From the UHGV virus genome UHGV-0276200: 34,282 bases of DNA; one strand, 5' to 3'. The first letter of the stretch is position 1. Each line of letters begins with the position of its first letter. The stretch is from a virus. Below, one piece after another: positions 2,109 to 11,539 of this stretch. The notes under the pieces are model-generated. The model was not told where the DNA came from and did no database searches. It saw nothing but the letters and a program-made list of their open reading frames with translations. Made by a program: the position numbers and the translations under genes.

Positions 2109-3125
2109 TCACTTTAAGTTAAATAAGGGGTTTTTAGTAACAGCATCTTCAAGATGTTCTGGTGCGAAATGGGCATAGACCATTGTCATTTTTATATCTG
2201 AGTGCCCTAAAATATCTCTCAATACAAGAATATTTCCGCCATTCATCATAAAGTGACTAGCGAATGTATGGCGCAATACATGCGTGCACTGGCCCTCTGG
2301 CAAGTCAATACCTGCTCTTTTTACTGCACGCTCAAAAGATTTTCTGCATGGCGTGAATAACTTCCCTCTGTTTTTGGGGAGTTCGTGATACAGATCTTGA
2401 GATATTGGTACTGTTCTGTTTTTCTTGCCCTTTGTCTTTGTATAAGTAATTCGGTATTTCGATATTTGGTGGCCCTGAAGGTTTTCGGCTTCACTCCACC
2501 GTGCGCCGGTAGCTAAGCATATTTTTGCAATCATTAGTAGGCTCGGGCTTTGAGATTCAGCACATGCAGCCAACAGGCGCTTGATTTCGTCCACGGAAAG
2601 AAAAGCCAGCTCACCTTCGGTAATTTTGAAGGTCGGAAGTCCTGCCAGCGGGTTTGGTGCTGACCAGTGTCCTAGTTTTTTTAATGTACCGAACACCGAT
2701 GATAGATTGCGCTGTTCAAGGTTTACCGTGCGGGGCTTAACGGGCGACATAAGCGTGCCATCTTCATTTCGTACTTCACCTTTTAACCGTGCTTCGCGGT
2801 ATTTCGTAAAGTCACCGGCTGTTAGTTCTGAGGCGATGGGATCGCCTAGACCATTACAGATAATTCTAAGTTTCGCCATGAGGCGCTTGGGGTCTGCGAG
2901 TGTTTGACCATACAGGGAATACCACTGCTCAATTAATTCTGATAGGTGTCGCCGATCTTCCTTTTCCCCCAGCCATGGTTTTTTGTTCACTTCTTCCATT
3001 GTGAAGCTTTCAAAAGCAATGGCTTCGCCTTTCGTAGCAAATTGCTTACGCACGCGCTTGCCATTGCGTCCATTGGGATAGCACTCGCACAACCATTTAC
3101 CGTTTGGCTGTTTTCTGACAGTCAT
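2109..3125 (-). CDS. int: Tyrosine integrase (P2 Int family)
   Basis: 338 aa. N-terminus GRNGKRVRKQF...AFE resembles P2 Int; C-terminus has HxLRHTFAS...GH...MVYAH catalytic R/H/R/Y-type motifs. Located next to the att site. Confidence 0.9.
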   Translation of the reverse strand: MTVRKQPNGKWLCECYPNGRNGKRVRKQFATKGEAIAFESFTMEEVNKKPWLGEKEDRRHLSELIEQWYSLYGQTLADPKRLMAKLRIICNGLGDPIASELTAGDFTKYREARLKGEVRNEDGTLMSPVKPRTVNLEQRNLSSVFGTLKKLGHWSAPNPLAGLPTFKITEGELAFLSVDEIKRLLAACAESQSPSLLMIAKICLATGARWSEAENLQGHQISKYRITYTKTKGKKNRTVPISQDLYHELPKNRGKLFTPCRKSFERAVKRAGIDLPEGQCTHVLRHTFASHFMMNGGNILVLRDILGHSDIKMTMVYAHFAPEHLEDAVTKNPLFNLK

Positions 3126-3127
3126 GT

Positions 3128-3760
3128 TTAGATACTCTTTATTACTTTGACTGCACGCCCAATAACTTCCACATCATCAGTAGAGCACTCGAAAGACGCT
3201 TCATCTTGATTTACTACAATCTTATTGCCGGGAATCCGCATGATTTTTGCAACAATAATCATTCCATCAATATTGATAAGCCAGAATCCATTGCTGACCT
3301 GTTTAATTGATTTATCGATGAGATAACAATCAGTAGGGGTTTCTAAGAACATCGATTCTTCATAATCTGCAGGTAATATGCTGTGGTCTAGGAAAATCTC
3401 TTCATCAATACTGAGTTGTCCATTCTCCAGGGTTCCTTTAGGAATAGCTGGAGTTATGAGTTTGGATAACGGTTTAATTGCTTGTTTGTTCTCATTATGA
3501 GAACTTTTCTCAGGCTCAGCTCCTCCTTTCATGCTTCCCTGTCCTGTAGCTAACCAAAGCAACGAAACACCGGTTTCTAGTGCGCACTGAATTATCCAGT
3601 CAGCAGGAAAGCTGTCACGTAACACTCTGTTTGCCATAGTGCTTTTTGAGACATTCAGGTGCTCGCTTAATGCCTGCTTAGTTGTGAATCCATAAGCCTC
3701 AAGCAGCCTTTCAATAGCTGCCTTACCTCCCGTATCGGAACCCATTCTGATGTTTAACAT
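3128..3760 (-). CDS. cI: CI-type immunity repressor (186-like)
   Basis: 210 aa with N-terminal HTH-like region (TKQALSEHLNVSKSTMANR...CALETGVSLLWLATGQG). Divergent from apl/cII across a promoter/operator region, as in 186. Confidence 0.75.
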   Translation of the reverse strand: MLNIRMGSDTGGKAAIERLLEAYGFTTKQALSEHLNVSKSTMANRVLRDSFPADWIIQCALETGVSLLWLATGQGSMKGGAEPEKSSHNENKQAIKPLSKLITPAIPKGTLENGQLSIDEEIFLDHSILPADYEESMFLETPTDCYLIDKSIKQVSNGFWLINIDGMIIVAKIMRIPGNKIVVNQDEASFECSTDDVEVIGRAVKVIKSI

Positions 3761-3773
3761 TGGTAATCTCCAT

Positions 3774-3802
3774 TTGACAATCTTGAATCAAGATCGTAAT
3801 GT
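3774..3802 (+). promoter_or_regulatory. Putative rightward early promoter (pR-like) with embedded operator palindrome
   Basis: -35 TTGACA (3774-3779), 17-bp spacer, -10 TAATGT (3797-3802). Perfect 6-1-6 palindrome TCTTGA-A-TCAAGA at 3781-3793 inside the spacer. About 80 bp upstream of apl. Confidence 0.5.
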
Positions 3803-3881
3803 CTTCATGTCTCTTGATGTGAGAGTTTAAGAGACGGGCTAAAACGAACTAACACGCACACAAAGTAAGAGATACTGCACT

Positions 3882-4124
3882 ATGAGTACTGATATTTCAA
3901 TTCGTGTACCAAAAGAGATGGCTACGCCTGCAGAGTTCGCAGAGTGGGAGGGTATTTCCCGCGGCTCTGTTTACCAAAAAATTCACCATGGTCAACTTGC
4001 TAAGTACATGGTCAAGAAAGAAAAAAACAAAGGTCGCGTAAGCCTGCGTTATCTGATGTACAAAACCGATCAGGTCCGTGAATCCCTCGGTCATTCCAAC
4101 TTCCGAGTCATTGTTGGTAAGTAA
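3882..4124 (+). CDS. apl: Cox/Apl-family excisionase and transcriptional regulator
   Basis: 80 aa; first rightward gene opposite cI. Segment PAEFAEWEGISRGSVYQKIHHGQL resembles the HTH region of P2 Cox. Confidence 0.6.
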   Translation: MSTDISIRVPKEMATPAEFAEWEGISRGSVYQKIHHGQLAKYMVKKEKNKGRVSLRYLMYKTDQVRESLGHSNFRVIVGK

Positions 4125-4157
4125 GTTCAATTATGGGAACTTTCTAAGGGGGGCACC

Positions 4158-4667
4158 ATGTTTGATTACAAGATTTCCAAACATCCGCATTTCGATGAAG
4201 CCTGTAGGGCTTTTGCACTGCGCCACAACCTGGTGCAACTGGCAGAACGTGCAGGCATGAATGTGCAGATTCTGCGGAACAAGCTGAACCCAGCTCAACC
4301 TCATTTATTAACTGCACCAGAAATCTGGTTGCTTACCGATCTGACTGAAGATTCAACGCTGGTAGATGGTTTTCTGGCTCAGATTCACTGCCTGCCATGT
4401 GTACCGATTAATGAGGTGGCAAAAGAGAAACTGCCACATTACGTCATGAGTGCAACCGCAGAGATCGGGCGTGTTGCTGCAGGTGCGGTATCTGGCGATG
4501 TAAAAACCAGTGCAGGTCGTCGTGATGCTATCAGCAGCATTAACTCTGTAACACGACTGATGGCGCTGGCTGCTGTTTCATTGCAGGCCCGTTTACAGGC
4601 TAACCCTGCGATGGCGAGTGCAGTTGATACCGTGACTGGCCTCGGTGCTTCATTCGGTTTGCTGTGA
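4158..4667 (+). CDS. cII: CII-like lysogeny establishment regulator (186 CII family)
   Basis: 169 aa, the same length as 186 CII, in the canonical position after apl. Good RBS (aaggggg) before the ATG. Confidence 0.7.
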
Positions 4668-4674
4668 GGTGCTT

Positions 4675-4875
4675 ATGCTGACGAAAGAACCATCATTTGC
4701 ATCGCTGCTGGTAAAACAAAGTCCGGCAATGCACTACGGTCACGGCTGGATAATGGGTAAGGATGGTAAACGCTGGCATCCGTGCCGTTCACAAGATGAA
4801 TTGCTGGCAGAACTATCAACGAAAAAACGGGGGAACAAATGGCTATTGAAGGCGCTGCGGCGACTGTTCCATTAA
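4675..4875 (+). CDS. Small hypothetical early protein
   Basis: ATG at 4675 preceded by GAGGTG, directly after the cII stop. The track ORF 4645 is an N-terminal over-extension. Confidence 0.4.
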   Translation: MLTKEPSFASLLVKQSPAMHYGHGWIMGKDGKRWHPCRSQDELLAELSTKKRGNKWLLKALRRLFH

Positions 4876-4975
4876 GCCCCGGCGAACGCCTGAATGGACT
4901 TAATCACATTGCGGAATTAAGGGCGAAAGTTTTGGCCTTAATATTGAGTCAGAGCTTGAGCGGTTTATTAAAGAT

Positions 4976-5179
4976 ATGCGTGATCCACGGGATATCAATA
5001 ATGAACAAAATAAACGGGCACTGGCTGCCATATTCTTTATGGCAAAAATTCCAGCTGAACGTCATAGCATCAGCATTAGTGAGCTGACCACTGATGAAAA
5101 GCGGGAGTTGATTAAAGCAATGAATCATTTTCGTGCAGTGGTGAGCTTATTTCCAAGACGGCTAACCATGCCGAATTAA
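4976..5179 (+). CDS. Small hypothetical early protein (possibly the 3' part of a frame-disrupted gene)
   Basis: 67-aa ORF with a protein-like composition. The upstream overlapping ORF 4839..5087 in another frame has a plausible N-terminus but a junk-like C-terminus. Confidence 0.3.
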   Translation: MRDPRDINNEQNKRALAAIFFMAKIPAERHSISISELTTDEKRELIKAMNHFRAVVSLFPRRLTMPN

Positions 5180-5246
5180 CCAACTAATGAAATTAATGGC
5201 GTAAACCCGCCGGGCATCCCTTTATCTAAATTCAGGAGAATTGATT

Positions 5247-5480
5247 ATGCGTAATATTGAAACCCTCACAACCAAAGCCGGACCGGATGACGCAGGGCTT
5301 AATATTTTACTGACAGAGGCTCGTCTGGAAGAACGCCGGGCAAGGGCTGAAGCAATGGCAGCTCGCCTTGATAGCCTGGCGTGTCATATCACATCCCGCC
5401 AGCTAAACCACGTCGAAGCGGCAGAACTACTGCGTGTAACTGCTGAAGCAATCCAGAACGAAGCGCAGGAGATCCACTAA
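5247..5480 (+). CDS. Small hypothetical early protein
   Basis: ATG at 5247 preceded by AGGAG at 5234-5238. The track start at 5241 is a TTG. Confidence 0.45.
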   Translation: MRNIETLTTKAGPDDAGLNILLTEARLEERRARAEAMAARLDSLACHITSRQLNHVEAAELLRVTAEAIQNEAQEIH

Positions 5481-5707
5481 TGGCTGATGCAATGGATCTC
5501 GTACAGCAGCGCGTTGAAGAAGAACGCCAGCGCCATATTCGTGCTGCCCGTGCCAAAACACCGGGCGTGTCTCGCGTGCTTTGTATTGAATGTGAAGCGC
5601 CAATTCCGCCGGCACGACGCCGCGCCATTCCGGGAGTGCAGCTTTGCATTACCTGCCAGGAAATCGCAGAGCTGAAAGGCAAACATTACAACGGAGGTGC
5701 TGTATGA
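5480..5707 (+). CDS. TraR/DksA-family C4 zinc-finger protein
   Basis: 75 aa with CIECEAPIPPARRRAIPGVQLCITCQ (CxxC-N17-CxxC). AGGAG RBS upstream. Confidence 0.7.
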   Translation: MADAMDLVQQRVEEERQRHIRAARAKTPGVSRVLCIECEAPIPPARRRAIPGVQLCITCQEIAELKGKHYNGGAV

Positions 5708-6561
5708 GCACCATCCTGAAATGGGCGGGAAATAAAACCGCCAATATGTCCGAACTGAAAAAACACCTTCCTGCTGGCCCGCGACTGGTTGAACCTTTCG
5801 CGGGTTCCTGTGCTGTGATGATGGAGACGGATTACCCCAGCTATCTGGTTGCGGATATTAATCCTGATTTAATCAACCTCTATAAAAAGGTTGCCGCTGA
5901 TTGTGAATCGTTTATATCTCGCGCCAGAGTTTTATTTGAGATCGCAAACAGGGAGGTGGCTTATTACAACATAAGGCAGGAGTTTAATTACTCCACTGAA
6001 ATTACTGATTTCATGAAAGCGGTATATTTCCTGTATCTCAATCGTCACGGTTACCGTGGTTTATGTCGTTATAACAAGAGCGGGCATTTCAACATTCCCT
6101 ACGGTAATTATAAAAATCCGTATTTCCCTGAAAAAGAAATTCGTGCATTTGCAGAAAAAGCCCAGCGGGCAACATTTATCTGCGCCAGCTTCGATGAAAC
6201 GCTGGCAATGTTGCACGCGGGAGATGTGGTGTATTGCGATCCGCCGTATGACGGTACGTTTTCCGGCTATCACACTGATGGTTTCACTGAAGATGACCAG
6301 TATCACCTGGCATCCGTTCTTGAACATCGGTCATCAGAAGGACATCCAGTCATTGTTTCTAACAGTGACACATCCCTGATCCGTTCGCTGTATCGCAATT
6401 TTACTCACCACTATATCAAGGTAAAACGCAGCATCGGTGTGGCAGCTGGCGAGGGTAAATCAGCAACAGAAATCATTGCTGTTTCCGGGCCGTGCTGCTG
6501 GATGGGATTTGATTATTCGCGTGGCGTGGATAGTTCTGCCGTGTACGGAGTACGTGCATGA
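5704..6561 (+). CDS. dam: DNA adenine methyltransferase (Dam-like, N6-adenine)
   Basis: N-terminal LKWAGNK motif and catalytic DPPY motif ([12 protein letters not shown]). The track ORF 5644 is an upstream over-extension. Confidence 0.85.
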
Positions 6562-8972
6562 CTCATGCCGATATGAACAACTGCTGCGGCTTTAACGAGG
6601 CTGCCGCAGCATTCTCATGGAACAGCCCGAAAAAGGCCATTAACCCTTATCTGGACCCGGCGGAAGTTGCGCCGGTTTCTACGCTTTCAAACCTGATCAC
6701 TCTGTACGCTGCCGATAACGAGCAGGAACAGTTGCGCCGCGAGGCACTGAGTGATCAGGTCTGGGAGCGTTATTTCTTTAATGAATCACGTGATCCTGTC
6801 CAGCGCGAAATGGAGCAGGATAAGCTCATTAGCCGGGCAAAGCTGGCGCATGAGCAGCAGCGTTTTAATTCAGACATGGTCATTCTGGCGGACGTCAACG
6901 CCCAGCCTTCCCATATCAGCAAGCCGCTGATGCAACGTATTGAATACTTCAGCAGCCTGGGCAGGCCAAAGGCTTATTCCCGCTATTTACGTGAGACGAT
7001 TAAGCCATGTCTGGAACGACTGGAGCATGTACGCGACAGTCAGCTATCTGCATCTTTTCGCTTTATGGCAAGCCATGAAGGGCTGGACGGCCTGCTGATC
7101 CTGCCTGAAATGAGTCAGGATCAGGTGAAACGCCTGTCCACCCTGGTAGCTGCGCATATGAGTATGTGCCTTGATGCAGCTTGTGGTGATTTGTATGCCA
7201 CCGATGACGTTAAGCCAGAAGAAATCCGCAAGACATGGGAAAAGGTGGCAGCGGAAACCCTGCGTCTGGATGTCATCCCACCTGCGTTTGAGCAACTCCG
7301 TCGGAAAAGAAACCGCCGTAAACCCGTGCCCTATGAACTCATTCCGGGTTCGCTGGCGCGTATGTTGTGCGCCGACTGGTGGTATCGGAAATTATGGAAG
7401 ATGCGTTGCGAATGGCGGGAAGAGCAGTTGCGCGCTGTTTGCCTGGTCAGCAAAAAAGCATCTCCTTATGTCAGCTATGAAGCCGTGATGCATAAACGTG
7501 AGCAGCGCCGTAAGTCGCTGGAGTTTTTCCGTTCTCATGAACTGGTGAACGAAGACGGCGACACGCTGGACATGGAGGATGTGGTAAACGCCAGCAGCAG
7601 CAACCCTGCGCATCGCCGCAATGAGATGATGGCCTGTGTTAAAGGTCTGGAGCTTATCGCGGAAATGCGCGGTGACTGCGCCGTTTTCTACACTATCACC
7701 TGTCCGTCGCGTTTCCATTCCACGCTAAATAACGGCAGACCAAACCCGACCTGGACAAACGCGACGGTAAGACAAAGCAGCGATTATCTGGTCGGCATGT
7801 TTGCTGCATTTCGTAAGGCGATGCACAAAGCCGGGTTGCGCTGGTATGGCGTGCGGGTGGCTGAGCCGCATCATGATGGCACAGTTCACTGGCACCTGTT
7901 GTGTTTCATGCGCAAAAAAGACCGCCGTGCCATCACTGCATTACTGCGTAAGTTTGCCATCCGTGAAGACCGCGAGGAGCTGGGCAATAACACTGGGCCG
8001 CGCTTTAAGTCTGAGTTGATTAACCCGCGCAAAGGAACGCCGACAAGCTACATCGCGAAATATATCAGTAAGAACATTGACGGTCGTGGTCTGGCTGGCG
8101 AGATCAGCAAGGAAACGGGTAAATCTCTGCGTGATAACGCTGAATACGTGAATGCCTGGGCGTCTTTGCATCGTGTTCAGCAATTCCGCTTCTTTGGCAT
8201 TCCGGGGCGTCAGGCTTACCGTGAACTGCGATTGTTGGCTGGTCAGGCGGCAAGGCAACAGGGGGACAAAAATGCAGGTGCGCCGGTACTGGATAACCCG
8301 CGTCTTGATGCCATTCTGGCTGCTGCTGATGCTGGTTGTTTTGCCACCTACATCATGAAGCAGGGCGGCGTACTGGTTCCCCGTAAATATCACCTCATCA
8401 GAACCGCTTATGAAATCAACGAAGAGCCGACCGCCTATGGCGATCACGGCATTCGTATTTATGGCATCTGGTCACCCATTGCAGAGGGCAAGATCTGCAC
8501 TCATGCAGTGAAGTGGAAAATGGTTCGTAAAGCCGTTGACGTTCAGGAGGCGGCAGCCGACCAGGGCGCTTGCGCCCCTTGGACTCGTGGCAATAACTGT
8601 CCCCTTGCTGAAAATTTGAACCAACAAGGGAAAGACAAATCAGCTGATGGGGATACCAGAACGGAAATCACCCGCATGGATGACAAGGAATTGCACGATT
8701 ACCTGCACAGTATGAGCAAAAAAGAGCGCCGGGAACTGGCAGCAAGGTTACGCCTGGTTAAACCGAAACGGCGTAAAGACTACAAACAGCGAATTACAGA
8801 TCATCAGCGACAGCAGCTCGTCTATGAACTGAAGTCCAGAGGATTTGATGGCAGCGAGAAAGAGGTCGATTTACTCCTTCGCGGCGGCAGTATTCCGTCA
8901 GGAGCAGGCCTGCGTATCTTCTATCGGAACCAGCGTCTGCAGGAGGATGATAAATGGCGGAACCTGTATTAA
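6558..8972 (+). CDS. A: Replication initiation protein A (rolling-circle nickase, P2 gpA family)
   Basis: 804 aa. HUH-like motif ([10 protein letters not shown]) and tyrosine motif ([12 protein letters not shown]). Positioned after the early operon as in P2/186. Confidence 0.85.
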
Positions 8973-9064
8973 TTACGCAGGTTAACAATTCGTGCTCTTA
9001 ATAATACCAGGCATATCAGGCTGATGAGCGTAAAAAAACGTTTTACATCAGTAAGATTATTATA

Positions 9065-9084
9065 TACTGTAAATATAAACAGTG
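9065..9084. promoter_or_regulatory. LexA (SOS) box
   Basis: tactgtaaatataaacagtg matches the LexA consensus TACTGTATATATATACAGTA at 17 of 20 positions with perfect CTGT-N8-ACAG. Overlaps candidate -10 elements about 45 bp upstream of ORF 9125. Confidence 0.6.
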
Positions 9085-9124
9085 GTTATGTATACAGTGT
9101 TGCTTTGGTGTCATAGGAGGAAAG

Positions 9125-9313
9125 ATGCAGGACTATTTTTTGGAGTCTTTGAAGCTCCAGCGCATTGATTTTTTTCTTAAGCTTGTAGCGGCTAGTGAGT
9201 GTAGTGATGAAGAGAAGGGGCTGGCCCTGCAGTGGGTTTCTGAACTGACAGATGAACTCATGGCAAAAATCAGAACCCACGAATACAACCGCTCAATGGA
9301 TGTCATCAGCTGA
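9125..9313 (+). CDS. Small hypothetical protein, first gene after the LexA box (possible Tum-like antirepressor module)
   Basis: 62 aa, RBS GGAGG before the ATG. The antirepressor assignment rests on position only, by analogy with 186 tum. Confidence 0.4.
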   Translation: MQDYFLESLKLQRIDFFLKLVAASECSDEEKGLALQWVSELTDELMAKIRTHEYNRSMDVIS

Positions 9314-9323
9314 GGTGACTTTT

Positions 9324-9557
9324 ATGCGCATTGAAATAATGATCGATAAAGAGCAGAAGATTAGCCAGTCTACCCTGGACGCTCTGGAGTCCGAGCTTTA
9401 CCGCAACCTGCAACCCATCTATCCCAAGACAGCTATCCGCATCCGTAAAGGGTCGGCAAACGGCGTTGAGCTGAGTGGCTTAAAGCTTGATGAAGACAAA
9501 AAGCGGGTGATGGAAATTATGCAGCAGGTTTGGGAAGACGACAGCTGGCTGCACTAA
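9324..9557 (+). CDS. dinI: DinI-family protein
   Basis: 78 aa. MRIEIMIDK...TLDALESELYRNLQPIYP...EIMQQVWEDDSW aligns along its whole length with E. coli DinI. The track ORF 9252 is an over-extension. Confidence 0.8.
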   Translation: MRIEIMIDKEQKISQSTLDALESELYRNLQPIYPKTAIRIRKGSANGVELSGLKLDEDKKRVMEIMQQVWEDDSWLH

Positions 9558-9630
9558 GGAACGTTCCTGATGTAAGAACTTGATTCTGACGTCAGCAAGG
9601 TTGAACAACGAGAGTAGCGAGGCGTTAGCC

Positions 9631-9891
9631 ATGGGTAAAAAAGACAGTAATCACCAGATTATTTATCGGGGCCAGGTGCTGGAACGGTTTACCCCTGGCG
9701 GCTGGGTCTTCTTTCAACGCCCAAAGGAGTGTGGCGGAGGTTTTTGGTTGGGCCGCACCTATGAAGACTGCTTCTGGCTTGAGCTGGAATTCCCCGTTTC
9801 GCTATATGACGGCCTGGAGTTTTTGATGGAAGTCACCAGGGTAGAGCAGAGAAGTGATGAGGTTGACGCGAATTATTCCCTGTTTGATTAA
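9631..9891 (+). CDS. Hypothetical protein
   Basis: ATG at 9631 (MGKKDSNHQ...); no domain recognised. Confidence 0.4.
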   Translation: MGKKDSNHQIIYRGQVLERFTPGGWVFFQRPKECGGGFWLGRTYEDCFWLELEFPVSLYDGLEFLMEVTRVEQRSDEVDANYSLFD

Positions 9892-9939
9892 AAATGTATT
9901 AGCTTATAATGGAATACTATTTTTGCAGGTGGGGGCGCA

Positions 9940-10551
9940 ATGGATTTAGTCTTTAAAATTCTGGCTTCGTTGGGTGGGGTGTCTTTTGTTGCATCTGGCA
10001 TATTTGTTTGGATCGGGAAAGTTTATTTAGAAAGATATAAGTCGCGGCTAAACAAAGATATTGCTGAATTTCAATCACAACTGAGTGCAACTAATGAAAG
10101 AATAAAGGCTAAGTTAGACAATTCTGTTTATGTAACGAAAGCGTATTTTGATAAGGAGTTATCAGCATATAGTCTCATTTGGAATTCGATGTTTGAAACC
10201 AGAGAAAGCGTGCTTAAGCTGAGGCCTGCGCTGGATCATTTTGACCCCAACGAACCATTTGAAGAGAGAAAATTTAGAAGGTTGAAAGTTTTTTTCGATG
10301 CATTTAATACTTTTGTTACAAGTGTTGAGTCTAACAAACCGTTCATCTCACCAGAGGTTTATATAATCTTGGACCGTTTCCGGAAGGAATGCCTTTCAGA
10401 GTCAATATCGTTTCAGCATGGCGATCCAGAATTTGACTGGCAAAATTATTGGAAAGAGGCAGAGTTGAACCGTACAACCATCACCAAGCTTTTTGATGAG
10501 ACGTGTGATGCAATTCGAGACAGGATGCACACATTAACTGTGGTTACGTAG
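9940..10551 (+). CDS. Hypothetical membrane-anchored cargo protein (N-terminal transmembrane helix)
   Basis: 203 aa; residues about 5-26 are hydrophobic (ILASLGGVSFVASGIFVWIG), followed by a charged, helix-rich soluble region. AT-rich. Confidence 0.55.
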   Translation: MDLVFKILASLGGVSFVASGIFVWIGKVYLERYKSRLNKDIAEFQSQLSATNERIKAKLDNSVYVTKAYFDKELSAYSLIWNSMFETRESVLKLRPALDHFDPNEPFEERKFRRLKVFFDAFNTFVTSVESNKPFISPEVYIILDRFRKECLSESISFQHGDPEFDWQNYWKEAELNRTTITKLFDETCDAIRDRMHTLTVVT

Positions 10552-10642
10552 TTTTCCAAAAAGTCTCGATGCCCGCTTTGGCGATTGTGCATGTCTATGC
10601 CGCATGAATCCGCATGATCGTTTGAGGATCGTTTTAGCTGAG

Positions 10643-10669
10643 GCCCGCTAGGAATGGCGGGCTTTTGCT
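10643..10669 (+). terminator. Rho-independent terminator
   Basis: GCCCGC (10643-48), 8-nt loop, GCGGGC (10657-62), then TTTTGCTT. Confidence 0.5.
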
Positions 10670-10711
10670 TATGTCATGCAGGCGCATGAAAACCACTACA
10701 TAAAGCGGGCA

Positions 10712-10730
10712 GGCGTGGCGGGGATACGAG
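10712..10730. other. Candidate cos site (cohesive-end sequence)
   Basis: ggcgtggcgggga (10712..10724) matches the first 13 nt of the 186/P2-type 19-nt cohesive end as recalled from memory (186 GGCGTGGCGGGGAAAGCAT). Confidence 0.5.
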
Positions 10731-10840
10731 CGCGCGCTCATGGTTGAATTAATGAAATTATGGTGTTAAATAGGCTAGCTTTTTAAGTCGTGAATATTCA
10801 ATTTTTCAACTCATTTTTTTCATAGGGAGGAGTAATTGAC

Positions 10841-11539
10841 ATGGTTATGTTAGTGGATGACTGTCCACGATGTGGATCACAAAAAATAGCGTTTGATGTT
10901 AATGGGCTGAATTGCACTAGGGTTTACAATGCATTGGGCGGGGGTAAAACATACGAGTACGAGGTCTATTGTGTTTGCCGAGAGTGTCATAAAACGACAA
11001 TGTTTCTTTGCAGACCTTTAACGAAAAATAAAACTTTAGATGGCTATAATTGGGAAAGTGGAATATTCGGCTTAAAGGAAGTTGCAGAGGTTGTTAGGCC
11101 TATATCACCGGCAGACTTAGCAGTAGAGGAGCCACCAGAGTTCTTACCTGAGCATATCAATAGTGCATATGAGGAAGGGGCGAAATGTTTGGCTATAGGT
11201 TGTTATAATGCAGCAGCAACCATGTTTAGGCTTTGCCTTGATTATGCCACAAAAGGACTTCTTCCTGATGGGGAGCAAGGGCCTGCGCAAAAAATAAGGA
11301 GAAGCCTAGGGTTAAGAATGGAGTGGTTATTTGATAATCATCTACTGCCTGAAGCTTTAAGGGAACTAGCTGAATGCGTTAAAGATGACGGAAATGATGG
11401 AGCGCATGAAGGTATTTTGGATAAAGCTGCTGCTGAGGATCTTGAAGATTTTACCTATCTTTTTTTAGAACGGCTTTACACTGAACCTCAACGCCTTATC
11501 GAAGCCAAGACAAGGCGTGAACAAAGAAGAAACAAATAA
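10841..11539 (+). CDS. Hypothetical cargo protein: N-terminal zinc ribbon plus C-terminal DUF4145-like domain
   Basis: 232 aa; CPRCGS...CVCRECHK gives four Cys. C-terminal helical region with GNDGAHEG and the following acidic helix resembles the DUF4145 signature as recalled. Strong RBS GGGAGGAG. About 42% GC. Lies between cos and the Q stop. Confidence 0.6.
   Translation: MVMLVDDCPRCGSQKIAFDVNGLNCTRVYNALGGGKTYEYEVYCVCRECHKTTMFLCRPLTKNKTLDGYNWESGIFGLKEVAEVVRPISPADLAVEEPPEFLPEHINSAYEEGAKCLAIGCYNAAATMFRLCLDYATKGLLPDGEQGPAQKIRRSLGLRMEWLFDNHLLPEALRELAECVKDDGNDGAHEGILDKAAAEDLEDFTYLFLERLYTEPQRLIEAKTRREQRRNK

Follow-up and report, generated by a model that had tools for sequence, protein, structure and literature searches.

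A predicted split-tum SOS operon behind the replication gene of a P2-like prophage

After DNA damage, is this prophage released by a LexA-controlled antirepressor, or by cleavage of its own repressor? The question is raised by a LexA box that lies ahead of a small open reading frame of 62 codons (ORF62) and a DinI-like gene in the window, by which we mean the whole stretch of DNA analysed (34,282 nucleotides; UHGV virus genome UHGV-0276200). Positions 2950-10679 of the window are identical to Escherichia phage Cartapus (7730/7730), a P2-like prophage carried by E. coli LF82 and related to Fels-2 (PMC9928086). In our judgment the locus is very probably an SOS operon of the split-tum form, belonging to a P2-like prophage of Fels-2/186 type and with antirepressor-driven induction.

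We picture the switch as follows. In an undamaged cell LexA would sit on a double overlapping operator (9065-9099) and cover a sigma-70 promoter at its -10 and its start, and both boxes would be occupied, with two LexA dimers bound. DNA damage would lead to RecA-stimulated cleavage of LexA and free the promoter, and a single transcript would then give a TumA-like helical hairpin of 62 residues, a TumB-like DinI protein of 77 residues and probably the product of the next small ORF too. We expect the TumA-like protein to form a reversible complex with the 186-type CI repressor, blocking the binding of CI to DNA and leaving it uncleaved; Tum would in this way inactivate the Cartapus CI, and the early lytic promoter would be released once CI is neutralised. 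The DinI-like protein would have an accessory role, acting on RecA filaments.

A conserved promoter and operator behind gpA

The SOS operon lies directly 3' of the gpA replication gene and runs in the order promoter (9042-9070), ORF62 and DinI gene. The original prediction had likened this position to that of tum in phage 186, and the likeness is borne out: p95, its LexA site and tum lie past gene A in the same way, and placement after gene A is common to 186, PSP3, Fels-2 and E. coli HS. The features discussed below are:

6558-8972: gpA replication gene
9042-9047, + strand: -35 hexamer TTTACA of the SOS promoter (the equivalent of 186 p95), 5/6 to TTGACA, 17 nt upstream of TACTGT
9065-9070, + strand: probable -10 TACTGT, the first six bases of LexA box 1
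9065-9084, + strand: LexA box 1, TACTGTAAATATAAACAGTG, 17/20 to the consensus TACTGTATATATATACAGTA
9080-9099, + strand: LexA-like box 2, CAGTGGTTATGTATACAGTG, with a 5-nt overlap with box 1
9115-9120, + strand: Shine-Dalgarno AGGAGG of ORF62, read from the sequence, 4 nt ahead of the ATG at 9125
9125-9313, + strand: ORF62, tumA-like, a predicted 62-aa antirepressor (helical hairpin)
9324-9557, + strand: tumB, a DinI-family gene of 77 aa (Pfam DinI)
9631-9891, + strand: 86-aa ORF, a possible distal gene of the SOS transcript by presumed membership
3128-3760, - strand: CI repressor, the presumed antirepressor target (Phage_CI_repr + Phage_CI_C)

The LexA box that had been claimed at 17 of 20 consensus positions is there: box 1 departs from the 20-nt consensus at 3 positions, is the single such match in 34 kb and is alone in the window in having the form CTGT-N8-ACAG. 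Shuffled sequences gave no match of any kind to the LexA consensus (0/100 shuffles). By an approximate heterology index the two best LexA-like sites anywhere in the window are box 1 (about 4.9) and, behind it, box 2; the index uses an approximate matrix of E. coli sites, which reproduces published values only roughly and serves for ranking only. Likewise the predicted overlap of box and promoter holds, with TTTACA, a 17-nt spacer and then the TACTGT that opens box 1, so that the operator overlaps the promoter. This layout is retained in 27/41 related loci, and the letters of the spacer are unrelated among them and free to vary. The promoter was assigned by analogy with the annotated p95 of 186 plus this conservation; a generic promoter scan gave no sigma-70 site at the operon promoter, because the -10 matches at only 3/6 positions.

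That blank scan is one of two points in favor of a dismissive explanation, in which the LexA-like box is a chance AT-rich palindrome and ORF62 is not a gene. The other is the labelling of the ORF62 family in public records, where it appears as 'hypothetical protein' and, in PHROGs, as phrog_698 with 'unknown function'; a single stray record names it 'levan regulatory protein'. Against it stand the shuffling control, the strong Shine-Dalgarno of ORF62 and the 484 close homologues of this ORF in the database, together with transcription that is induced about 90-fold and a deletion phenotype in E. coli HS, both described below. Conservation weighs heavily as well. Our sample comprised ten phages from seven Peduoviridae genera plus 33 species-level bacterial loci, and a CTG-N10-CAG box lies upstream of a homologous ORF in all of the phages (10/10) and in every intact species-level locus (31/31); one of the remaining two of the 33 loci is cut by a contig end and the other is a pseudogene. 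Box, spacing and ORF are kept in the intact loci even as the flanks diverge, with 18-77 nt between box and small ORF, and the box core is perfect in 25 of the 33 loci and carries one mismatch (usually CCAG) in 6. The chance-palindrome explanation is refuted by the conservation and expression data, and we give it practically no weight.

A DinI gene follows the small ORF in only 20/33 loci, and phages ESSI-2, ev040 and YenM_06.16-2 have box and small ORF without it. The invariant core of the module is promoter, LexA box and small ORF, and DinI is an optional accessory.

Box 1 is joined by a second box at an offset of 15 nt, which is the offset found in the cea operator of ColE1, and CAGTG is common to the two boxes. 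Over its 35 nt (9065-9099) the double site matches the ColE1 cea double operator (5061-5095 of the plasmid record) at 28/35 positions in the same register; for the Fels-2 version the figure is 31/35, with box 2 identical throughout (20/20). A perfect right half-site of box 2 occurs at +15 in 21/33 loci; among the 10 phages and 33 loci examined, 186, PSP3 and the Pantoea/Erwinia branch lack it. Judged by its letters, this operator belongs with the double overlapping SOS boxes of the colicin type. Colicin double operators bind two LexA dimers, are tightly repressed and confine expression to a small fraction of cells (PMC2994835). Neither the overlapping box 2 nor the homology of ORF62 to the N-terminal half of Tum had been remarked on in the original prediction.

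ORF62, its DinI neighbor and the repressor

The proposal that ORF62 be aligned with 186 Tum gave a divided answer: BLASTP returned no alignment between the two, but hhalign, run between the ORF62-family profile and one built for the N-terminal half of 186 Tum, joined residues 2-44 to residues 2-44 with a probability of 96.1% (E 3.1e-9). At the level of profiles ORF62 and this half of Tum are homologous; that BLASTP finds no similarity counts against the explanation that we favor. An exhaustive HMMER search brought in divergent homologues of ORF62 down to about 36% identity. The ORF62 profile compared with the single PSP3 TumA sequence gave an hhalign probability of 7% (E 0.005), in register at the Cys loop. 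An AlphaFold2 model places helices at residues 2-22 and 28-61 (pLDDT 85.6). Searching the PDB with the ORF62 profile gave no match, and neither did a Pfam search of ORF62. Foldseek hits of the model to helical hairpins in the PDB were non-significant (the best, the ExoVII small subunit, at E 0.7) and were disregarded. In comparisons with relatives, codons of ORF62 show 17-20 synonymous and 7-10 non-synonymous differences, a pattern that fits a coding gene under purifying selection.

Closer relatives give the gene its likely name. ORF62 is 98.4% identical to STM2728 of Fels-2, and it is identical at 61/62 residues to ECHS_RS04495 of E. coli HS, which is annotated as a 62-aa 'hypothetical protein'. 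According to PMC3121763, a stop codon divides the tum of Fels-2 and PSP3 in two, with the antirepressor gene first and a DinI gene after it, and in the PSP3 record tumA carries the note 'UV induction of prophage' while tumB is given as DinI. Because of its homology to the N-terminal half of Tum, its identity to STM2728 and its identity to the HS gene, ORF62 would be the tumA of such a split tum (tumA/tumB).

The predicted DinI homologue after the 62-aa ORF is beyond reasonable dispute, with a match to Pfam DinI (PF06183) at 2e-24 that covers positions 1-63 of the 63 in the profile (86.1 bits vs a cut-off of 24.2) and a match to PDB 1GHH at 2e-9. It is also 43% identical to residues 71-145 of 186 Tum, the C-terminal half, and its ribosome-binding site, GAGGTG, shares bases with the stop codon of ORF62. 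Membership of this family suggests that the protein would bind RecA filaments and modulate co-protease activity. Further downstream there is no terminator-like site between 9557 and 9631, and the 86-aa ORF (9631-9891), which matches phrog_2100 (function unknown), may possibly belong to the same SOS transcript. PADLOC returned no match for the downstream 86-aa and 203-aa ORFs, and no Rfam families were found in 8800-10900.

The window CI is homologous to 186 CI throughout (30% identical, E 1e-34), matches the 186 CI crystal structure (PDB 2FJR) at 1e-26 and has the Pfam domains Phage_CI_repr and Phage_CI_C in an architecture identical to that of 186 CI; no Peptidase_S24 hit was obtained in CI at E <= 0.01. 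As the CI is of 186 type and lacks an S24 domain, autocleavage is not expected. In 186 it is Tum, an anti-CI factor made from the LexA-regulated p95, that neutralises CI (PMC7708051).

Genetic evidence comes from the P2-like prophage of E. coli HS, in which the Phollow study made an in-frame deletion of tum (PMC12055606). Neither the Δtum strain nor a lexA(Ind-) strain showed lysis or viral foci after mitomycin C, and the Δtum strain still mounted an SOS response to the drug (PMC12055606). We found the published Δtum primer junctions ATAGGAGGAAAGATG and TGAGGTGACTTTTATGCGCATTG once each in the window, at 9113-9127 and 9311-9333, where they fall exactly on the start and stop of ORF62 (an ATG-to-TGA deletion). 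In the HS genome the same primers flank ECHS_RS04495, and promoter and box 1 are identical to those of the window. Because the DinI gene is intact in the Δtum strain, the small ORF is the essential inducer in HS. A separate observation on this system is that the proven HS Tum acts on a CI just 40% identical to that of the window, which counts against the explanation that we favor.

These results bear directly on the classical alternative of a lambda-like, RecA-stimulated autocleavage of the repressor, with the LexA-controlled genes as bystanders. We found nothing that speaks for it beyond the general lambdoid paradigm. It is opposed by the domain content of CI and the missing S24 hit, by the end-to-end homology with a repressor that a LexA-regulated Tum is known to neutralise (PMC7708051), and by the failure of the HS Δtum prophage to be induced despite intact RecA and an intact SOS response (PMC12055606), and we consider it very improbable. 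Antirepressor-driven induction, to which we return, is a better fit to the same evidence.

Strong tum expression and silent lytic genes in LF82

Transcription of the operon can be followed in published RNA-seq of LF82 (PMC9928086, S1 Table), in which values are given as log2(FPKM+5):

ORF62 (CARTA_44): LB 4.4; DMEM 5.5 at 1 h and 4.4 at 6 h; macrophage 9.9 at 1 h and 10.9 at 6 h
DinI (CARTA_45): LB 3.0; DMEM 4.4 at 1 h and 3.7 at 6 h; macrophage 7.9 at 1 h and 9.2 at 6 h
86-aa ORF (CARTA_46): LB 3.2; DMEM 3.4 at 1 h and 2.7 at 6 h; macrophage 5.0 at 1 h and 7.6 at 6 h

The small ORF is thus expressed, as the original prediction required of a real gene, rising from 4.4 to 10.9. Inside macrophages ORF62 gains 6.5 log2 units (about 90-fold) and DinI 6.2, and both stay flat in DMEM; the 86-aa ORF rises later than these two. 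Host dinI, umuD and sulA follow the same pattern with a smaller amplitude. The profile of the operon in LF82 correlates with that expected of a tightly LexA-repressed promoter.

The rest of the phage does not follow. While tum mRNA is high, the early lytic genes (cox-like, cII and gpA, the last at 2.5-2.8) and the late genes (about 2.3-2.9) remain at background. The cox-like gene reads 3.0 in DMEM and, inside macrophages, 4.7 after 1 h and 3.2 after 6 h, a small transient rise at 1 h that it shares with cII. The mRNA of cI stands at 8-16 times its LB level in both DMEM and macrophages. Cartapus virion DNA was not raised by ciprofloxacin (2.1e5 vs 3.3e5 genomes per mL; PMC9928086), and the authors of the LF82 study scored the phage as 'SOS induced: -' (PMC9928086); neither qPCR nor RNA-seq showed induction of this prophage in LF82. 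The claim of SOS induction through an antirepressor rather than autocleavage is supported: the CI without S24, the homology to the N-terminal half of Tum, the HS deletion and the LF82 transcription all argue for it. The lack of any visible lytic induction in LF82 argues against it, and the last step, in which Tum would inactivate this particular CI, is a prediction.

How can tum be on and the phage off? CI may be present in excess of Tum, by analogy with 186, for which modelling indicates that excess CI exceeds the capacity of Tum to sequester it (PMC7708051). A second possibility is that the Cartapus Tum may be mismatched to the Cartapus CI. Third, the co-resident phage Gally lyses cells at 50-80 min and may pre-empt the slower P2-type cycle, and fourth, switching may be confined to a small subpopulation.

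In a competing interpretation the operon is SOS-controlled yet decoupled from induction here: after mosaic exchange of the immunity region Tum would fail on the present CI or be out-titrated by it, and the operon would be left as an SOS accessory, for instance in modulating RecA through DinI or in inducing other P2-like prophages in trans. The silence of cox-like, cII, gpA and late genes under a roughly 90-fold rise of tum mRNA, the flat virion counts and negative SOS score of Cartapus, the raised cI mRNA and the sequestration limit modelled for 186 all favor this interpretation, as does the pairing of the same Tum allele with CIs that are 40-59% identical to that of the window. It is opposed by RE2010, in which the module is intact with this very type of CI (the CI is identical to that of the window and the Tum 98.4% identical), by the excess of synonymous over non-synonymous differences in ORF62 and by the slight transient increase that cox-like and cII transcripts show after 1 h inside macrophages. 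Furthermore, the ciprofloxacin assay is confounded by Gally lysis, and bulk RNA-seq would mask a small switching subpopulation. On balance we think decoupling unlikely, and hold to antirepressor-driven induction as the working account of this operon.

The pairing of tum and cI alleles deserves attention in its own right. Among phages of Escherichia, Salmonella and Klebsiella the 62-aa Tum is 98-100% identical, and their CIs share 40-59% identity with the CI of the window:

Fels-2: CI 58.5% identical to window CI
Kp4845-2: CI 53% identical
KP12: CI 45% identical
4LV2017: CI 40% identical
E. coli HS prophage: CI of 189 aa, 40% identical

Averaged over seven of these CIs, identity is 71% in the HTH N-domain and 36% in the C-domain, which suggests that Tum recognises the conserved N-domain of CI and may act across immunity types. 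We find it tempting to extend this further: Tum could be a broad-spectrum, trans-acting antirepressor directed at the CI N-domain that cross-induces heteroimmune P2-like prophages, with the double LexA operator restricting its firing to strong or prolonged SOS, and CIs of the Cartapus/RE2010 type may have escaped it. As a whole this is a speculation that we rate as rather doubtful. If true, escape of CI from Tum would account for the 'tum on, phage off' state of LF82, and such action across immunity would resemble that of the Gifsy antirepressors, which act in trans (PMC3121763).

Place among known SOS switches

The module is present in 1126/5426 complete E. coli genomes, so that it would decide the release of P2-like phages after DNA damage in about a fifth of the sequenced genomes of this species, and likewise in many Salmonella and Klebsiella genomes. 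Predictions of induction for such prophages miss the key gene because RefSeq and PHROGs label it 'hypothetical protein' or 'unknown function'. The switch itself is the already known 186 Tum or Fels-2/PSP3 TumA-TumB switch, with its function transferred to the locus in the window. Those defining features of a Tum module that sequence can reveal are all present here, and the biochemical ones have been shown only in relatives. What remains of value is that the double operator is colicin-like, that one Tum is paired with many CIs and that tum is strongly expressed in LF82 without lytic transcription, all of which bear on the timing and coordination of induction in polylysogens.

A close counterpart is STM2728/STM2726.1 of Fels-2, which has the same two-gene order of small ORF and DinI, the same site after gene A and a near-identical double operator, and whose CI is only about 58% identical to that of the window despite 98.4% identity in Tum. 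The E. coli HS prophage, DuoHS, is similarly close in Tum (61/62), promoter and box 1 (identical) and DinI (66/77 identical), with a CI at 40%. The tumA and tumB genes of PSP3 have the order and position seen here, and tumA is annotated for UV induction; however, only one LexA box is found in PSP3 and 186, and their TumA sequence is of another subfamily, whereas the window has the double box. In 186 the p95 promoter lies downstream of gene A and consists of a -35, an 18-nt spacer (17 nt in the window) and a -10 TACTGT with which the LexA site begins. The 146-aa Tum of 186 resembles ORF62 in its N-terminal half and the DinI gene in its C-terminal half, and its target CI has the same fold and is non-cleavable. 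The two halves are fused in 186 into one polypeptide with internal starts, but form two cistrons 10 nt apart in the window, and the 186 operon continues into orf97, which is not present in the window.

Outside this family, the operator of ColE1 has the double box but drives a colicin or lysis operon and not a prophage antirepressor. The GfoA, GftA and GfhA systems of Gifsy-1/2/3 can be likened to the window by operon logic, in that a LexA-repressed operon combines a dinI homologue with a small antirepressor against a non-cleavable repressor (PMC3121763), although their gene order is reversed, with dinI first, and they belong to lambdoid phages with another repressor family.

Expression of the operon and its neighbours in LF82

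In published RNA-seq of E. coli LF82, which carries the identical P2-like prophage Cartapus, the LexA-controlled tum-dinI operon (9125-9557) rises by about 6 log2 units in macrophages alongside host SOS genes, whereas transcripts of the early lytic operon (3882-8972) and of the late genes remain at background level (PMC9928086, S1/S3 Tables). The same study lists Cartapus as "SOS induced: -" and reports that its virion DNA does not increase with ciprofloxacin (PMC9928086).

The genes downstream of dinI, and one adjoining the integrase, are as follows.

9631-9891, + strand: 86-aa ORF, phrog_2100 (function unknown), next gene 3' of DinI
9940-10551, + strand: 203-aa protein, function unknown, phrog_26391, cargo gene
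10841-11539, + strand: DUF4145 protein, cargo gene
894-2099, - strand: 401-aa ORF adjoining the integrase, whose only matches are phage families without an assigned function (phrog_7835)

Because no terminator-like site was found between the 86-aa ORF and DinI, and because its induction in macrophages is delayed (LF82 RNA-seq, PMC9928086), it may be the third gene on the SOS transcript, where phage 186 has orf97. The 203-aa and DUF4145 genes, between which the Cartapus record stops at about 10679, are transcribed in LF82 lysogens, and their transcripts rise in both DMEM and macrophages (LF82 RNA-seq), so their increase is not SOS-specific. The DUF4145 protein has a weak match (1e-6) to PD-T7-4, a candidate defence protein in PADLOC; the 401-aa ORF, which is probably prophage cargo, has no PADLOC match.

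Annotation of tum and the early operon

The records of Cartapus, Fels-2 and E. coli HS label the experimentally validated tum gene (9125-9313) "hypothetical protein", its PHROGs entry (phrog_698) reads "unknown function", and one UniRef name is "Levan regulatory protein": an annotation gap at this gene. In the early operon, RefSeq flags Cartapus gp39 (about 4839-5179 in the window), which lies between a fil-like gene and a DUF2732 gene, as a pseudogene (misc_feature, hypothetical protein).

Repressor partners and module layouts

At related loci (L012-L017, L052), a near-identical 62-aa Tum-like protein (98-100% identity to that encoded at 9125-9313) is paired with CI repressors that share just 40-59% identity with the window CI (3128-3760). 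Conservation of CI is concentrated in the N-domains (mean 71%) and is far lower in the C-domains (mean 36%). This pairing of one Tum with divergent repressors, together with the conserved N-domain, hints that the Tum-like protein could be a broad-spectrum antirepressor aimed at the CI N-domain.

A LexA box and small tum ORF stand without a downstream DinI gene at L005, L006 and L009 and at 13 of the 33 species-level loci compared (L018-L050). Judging from these many relatives, DinI is an optional add-on to the tum module, and the fused tum of 186 is one among several module arrangements.
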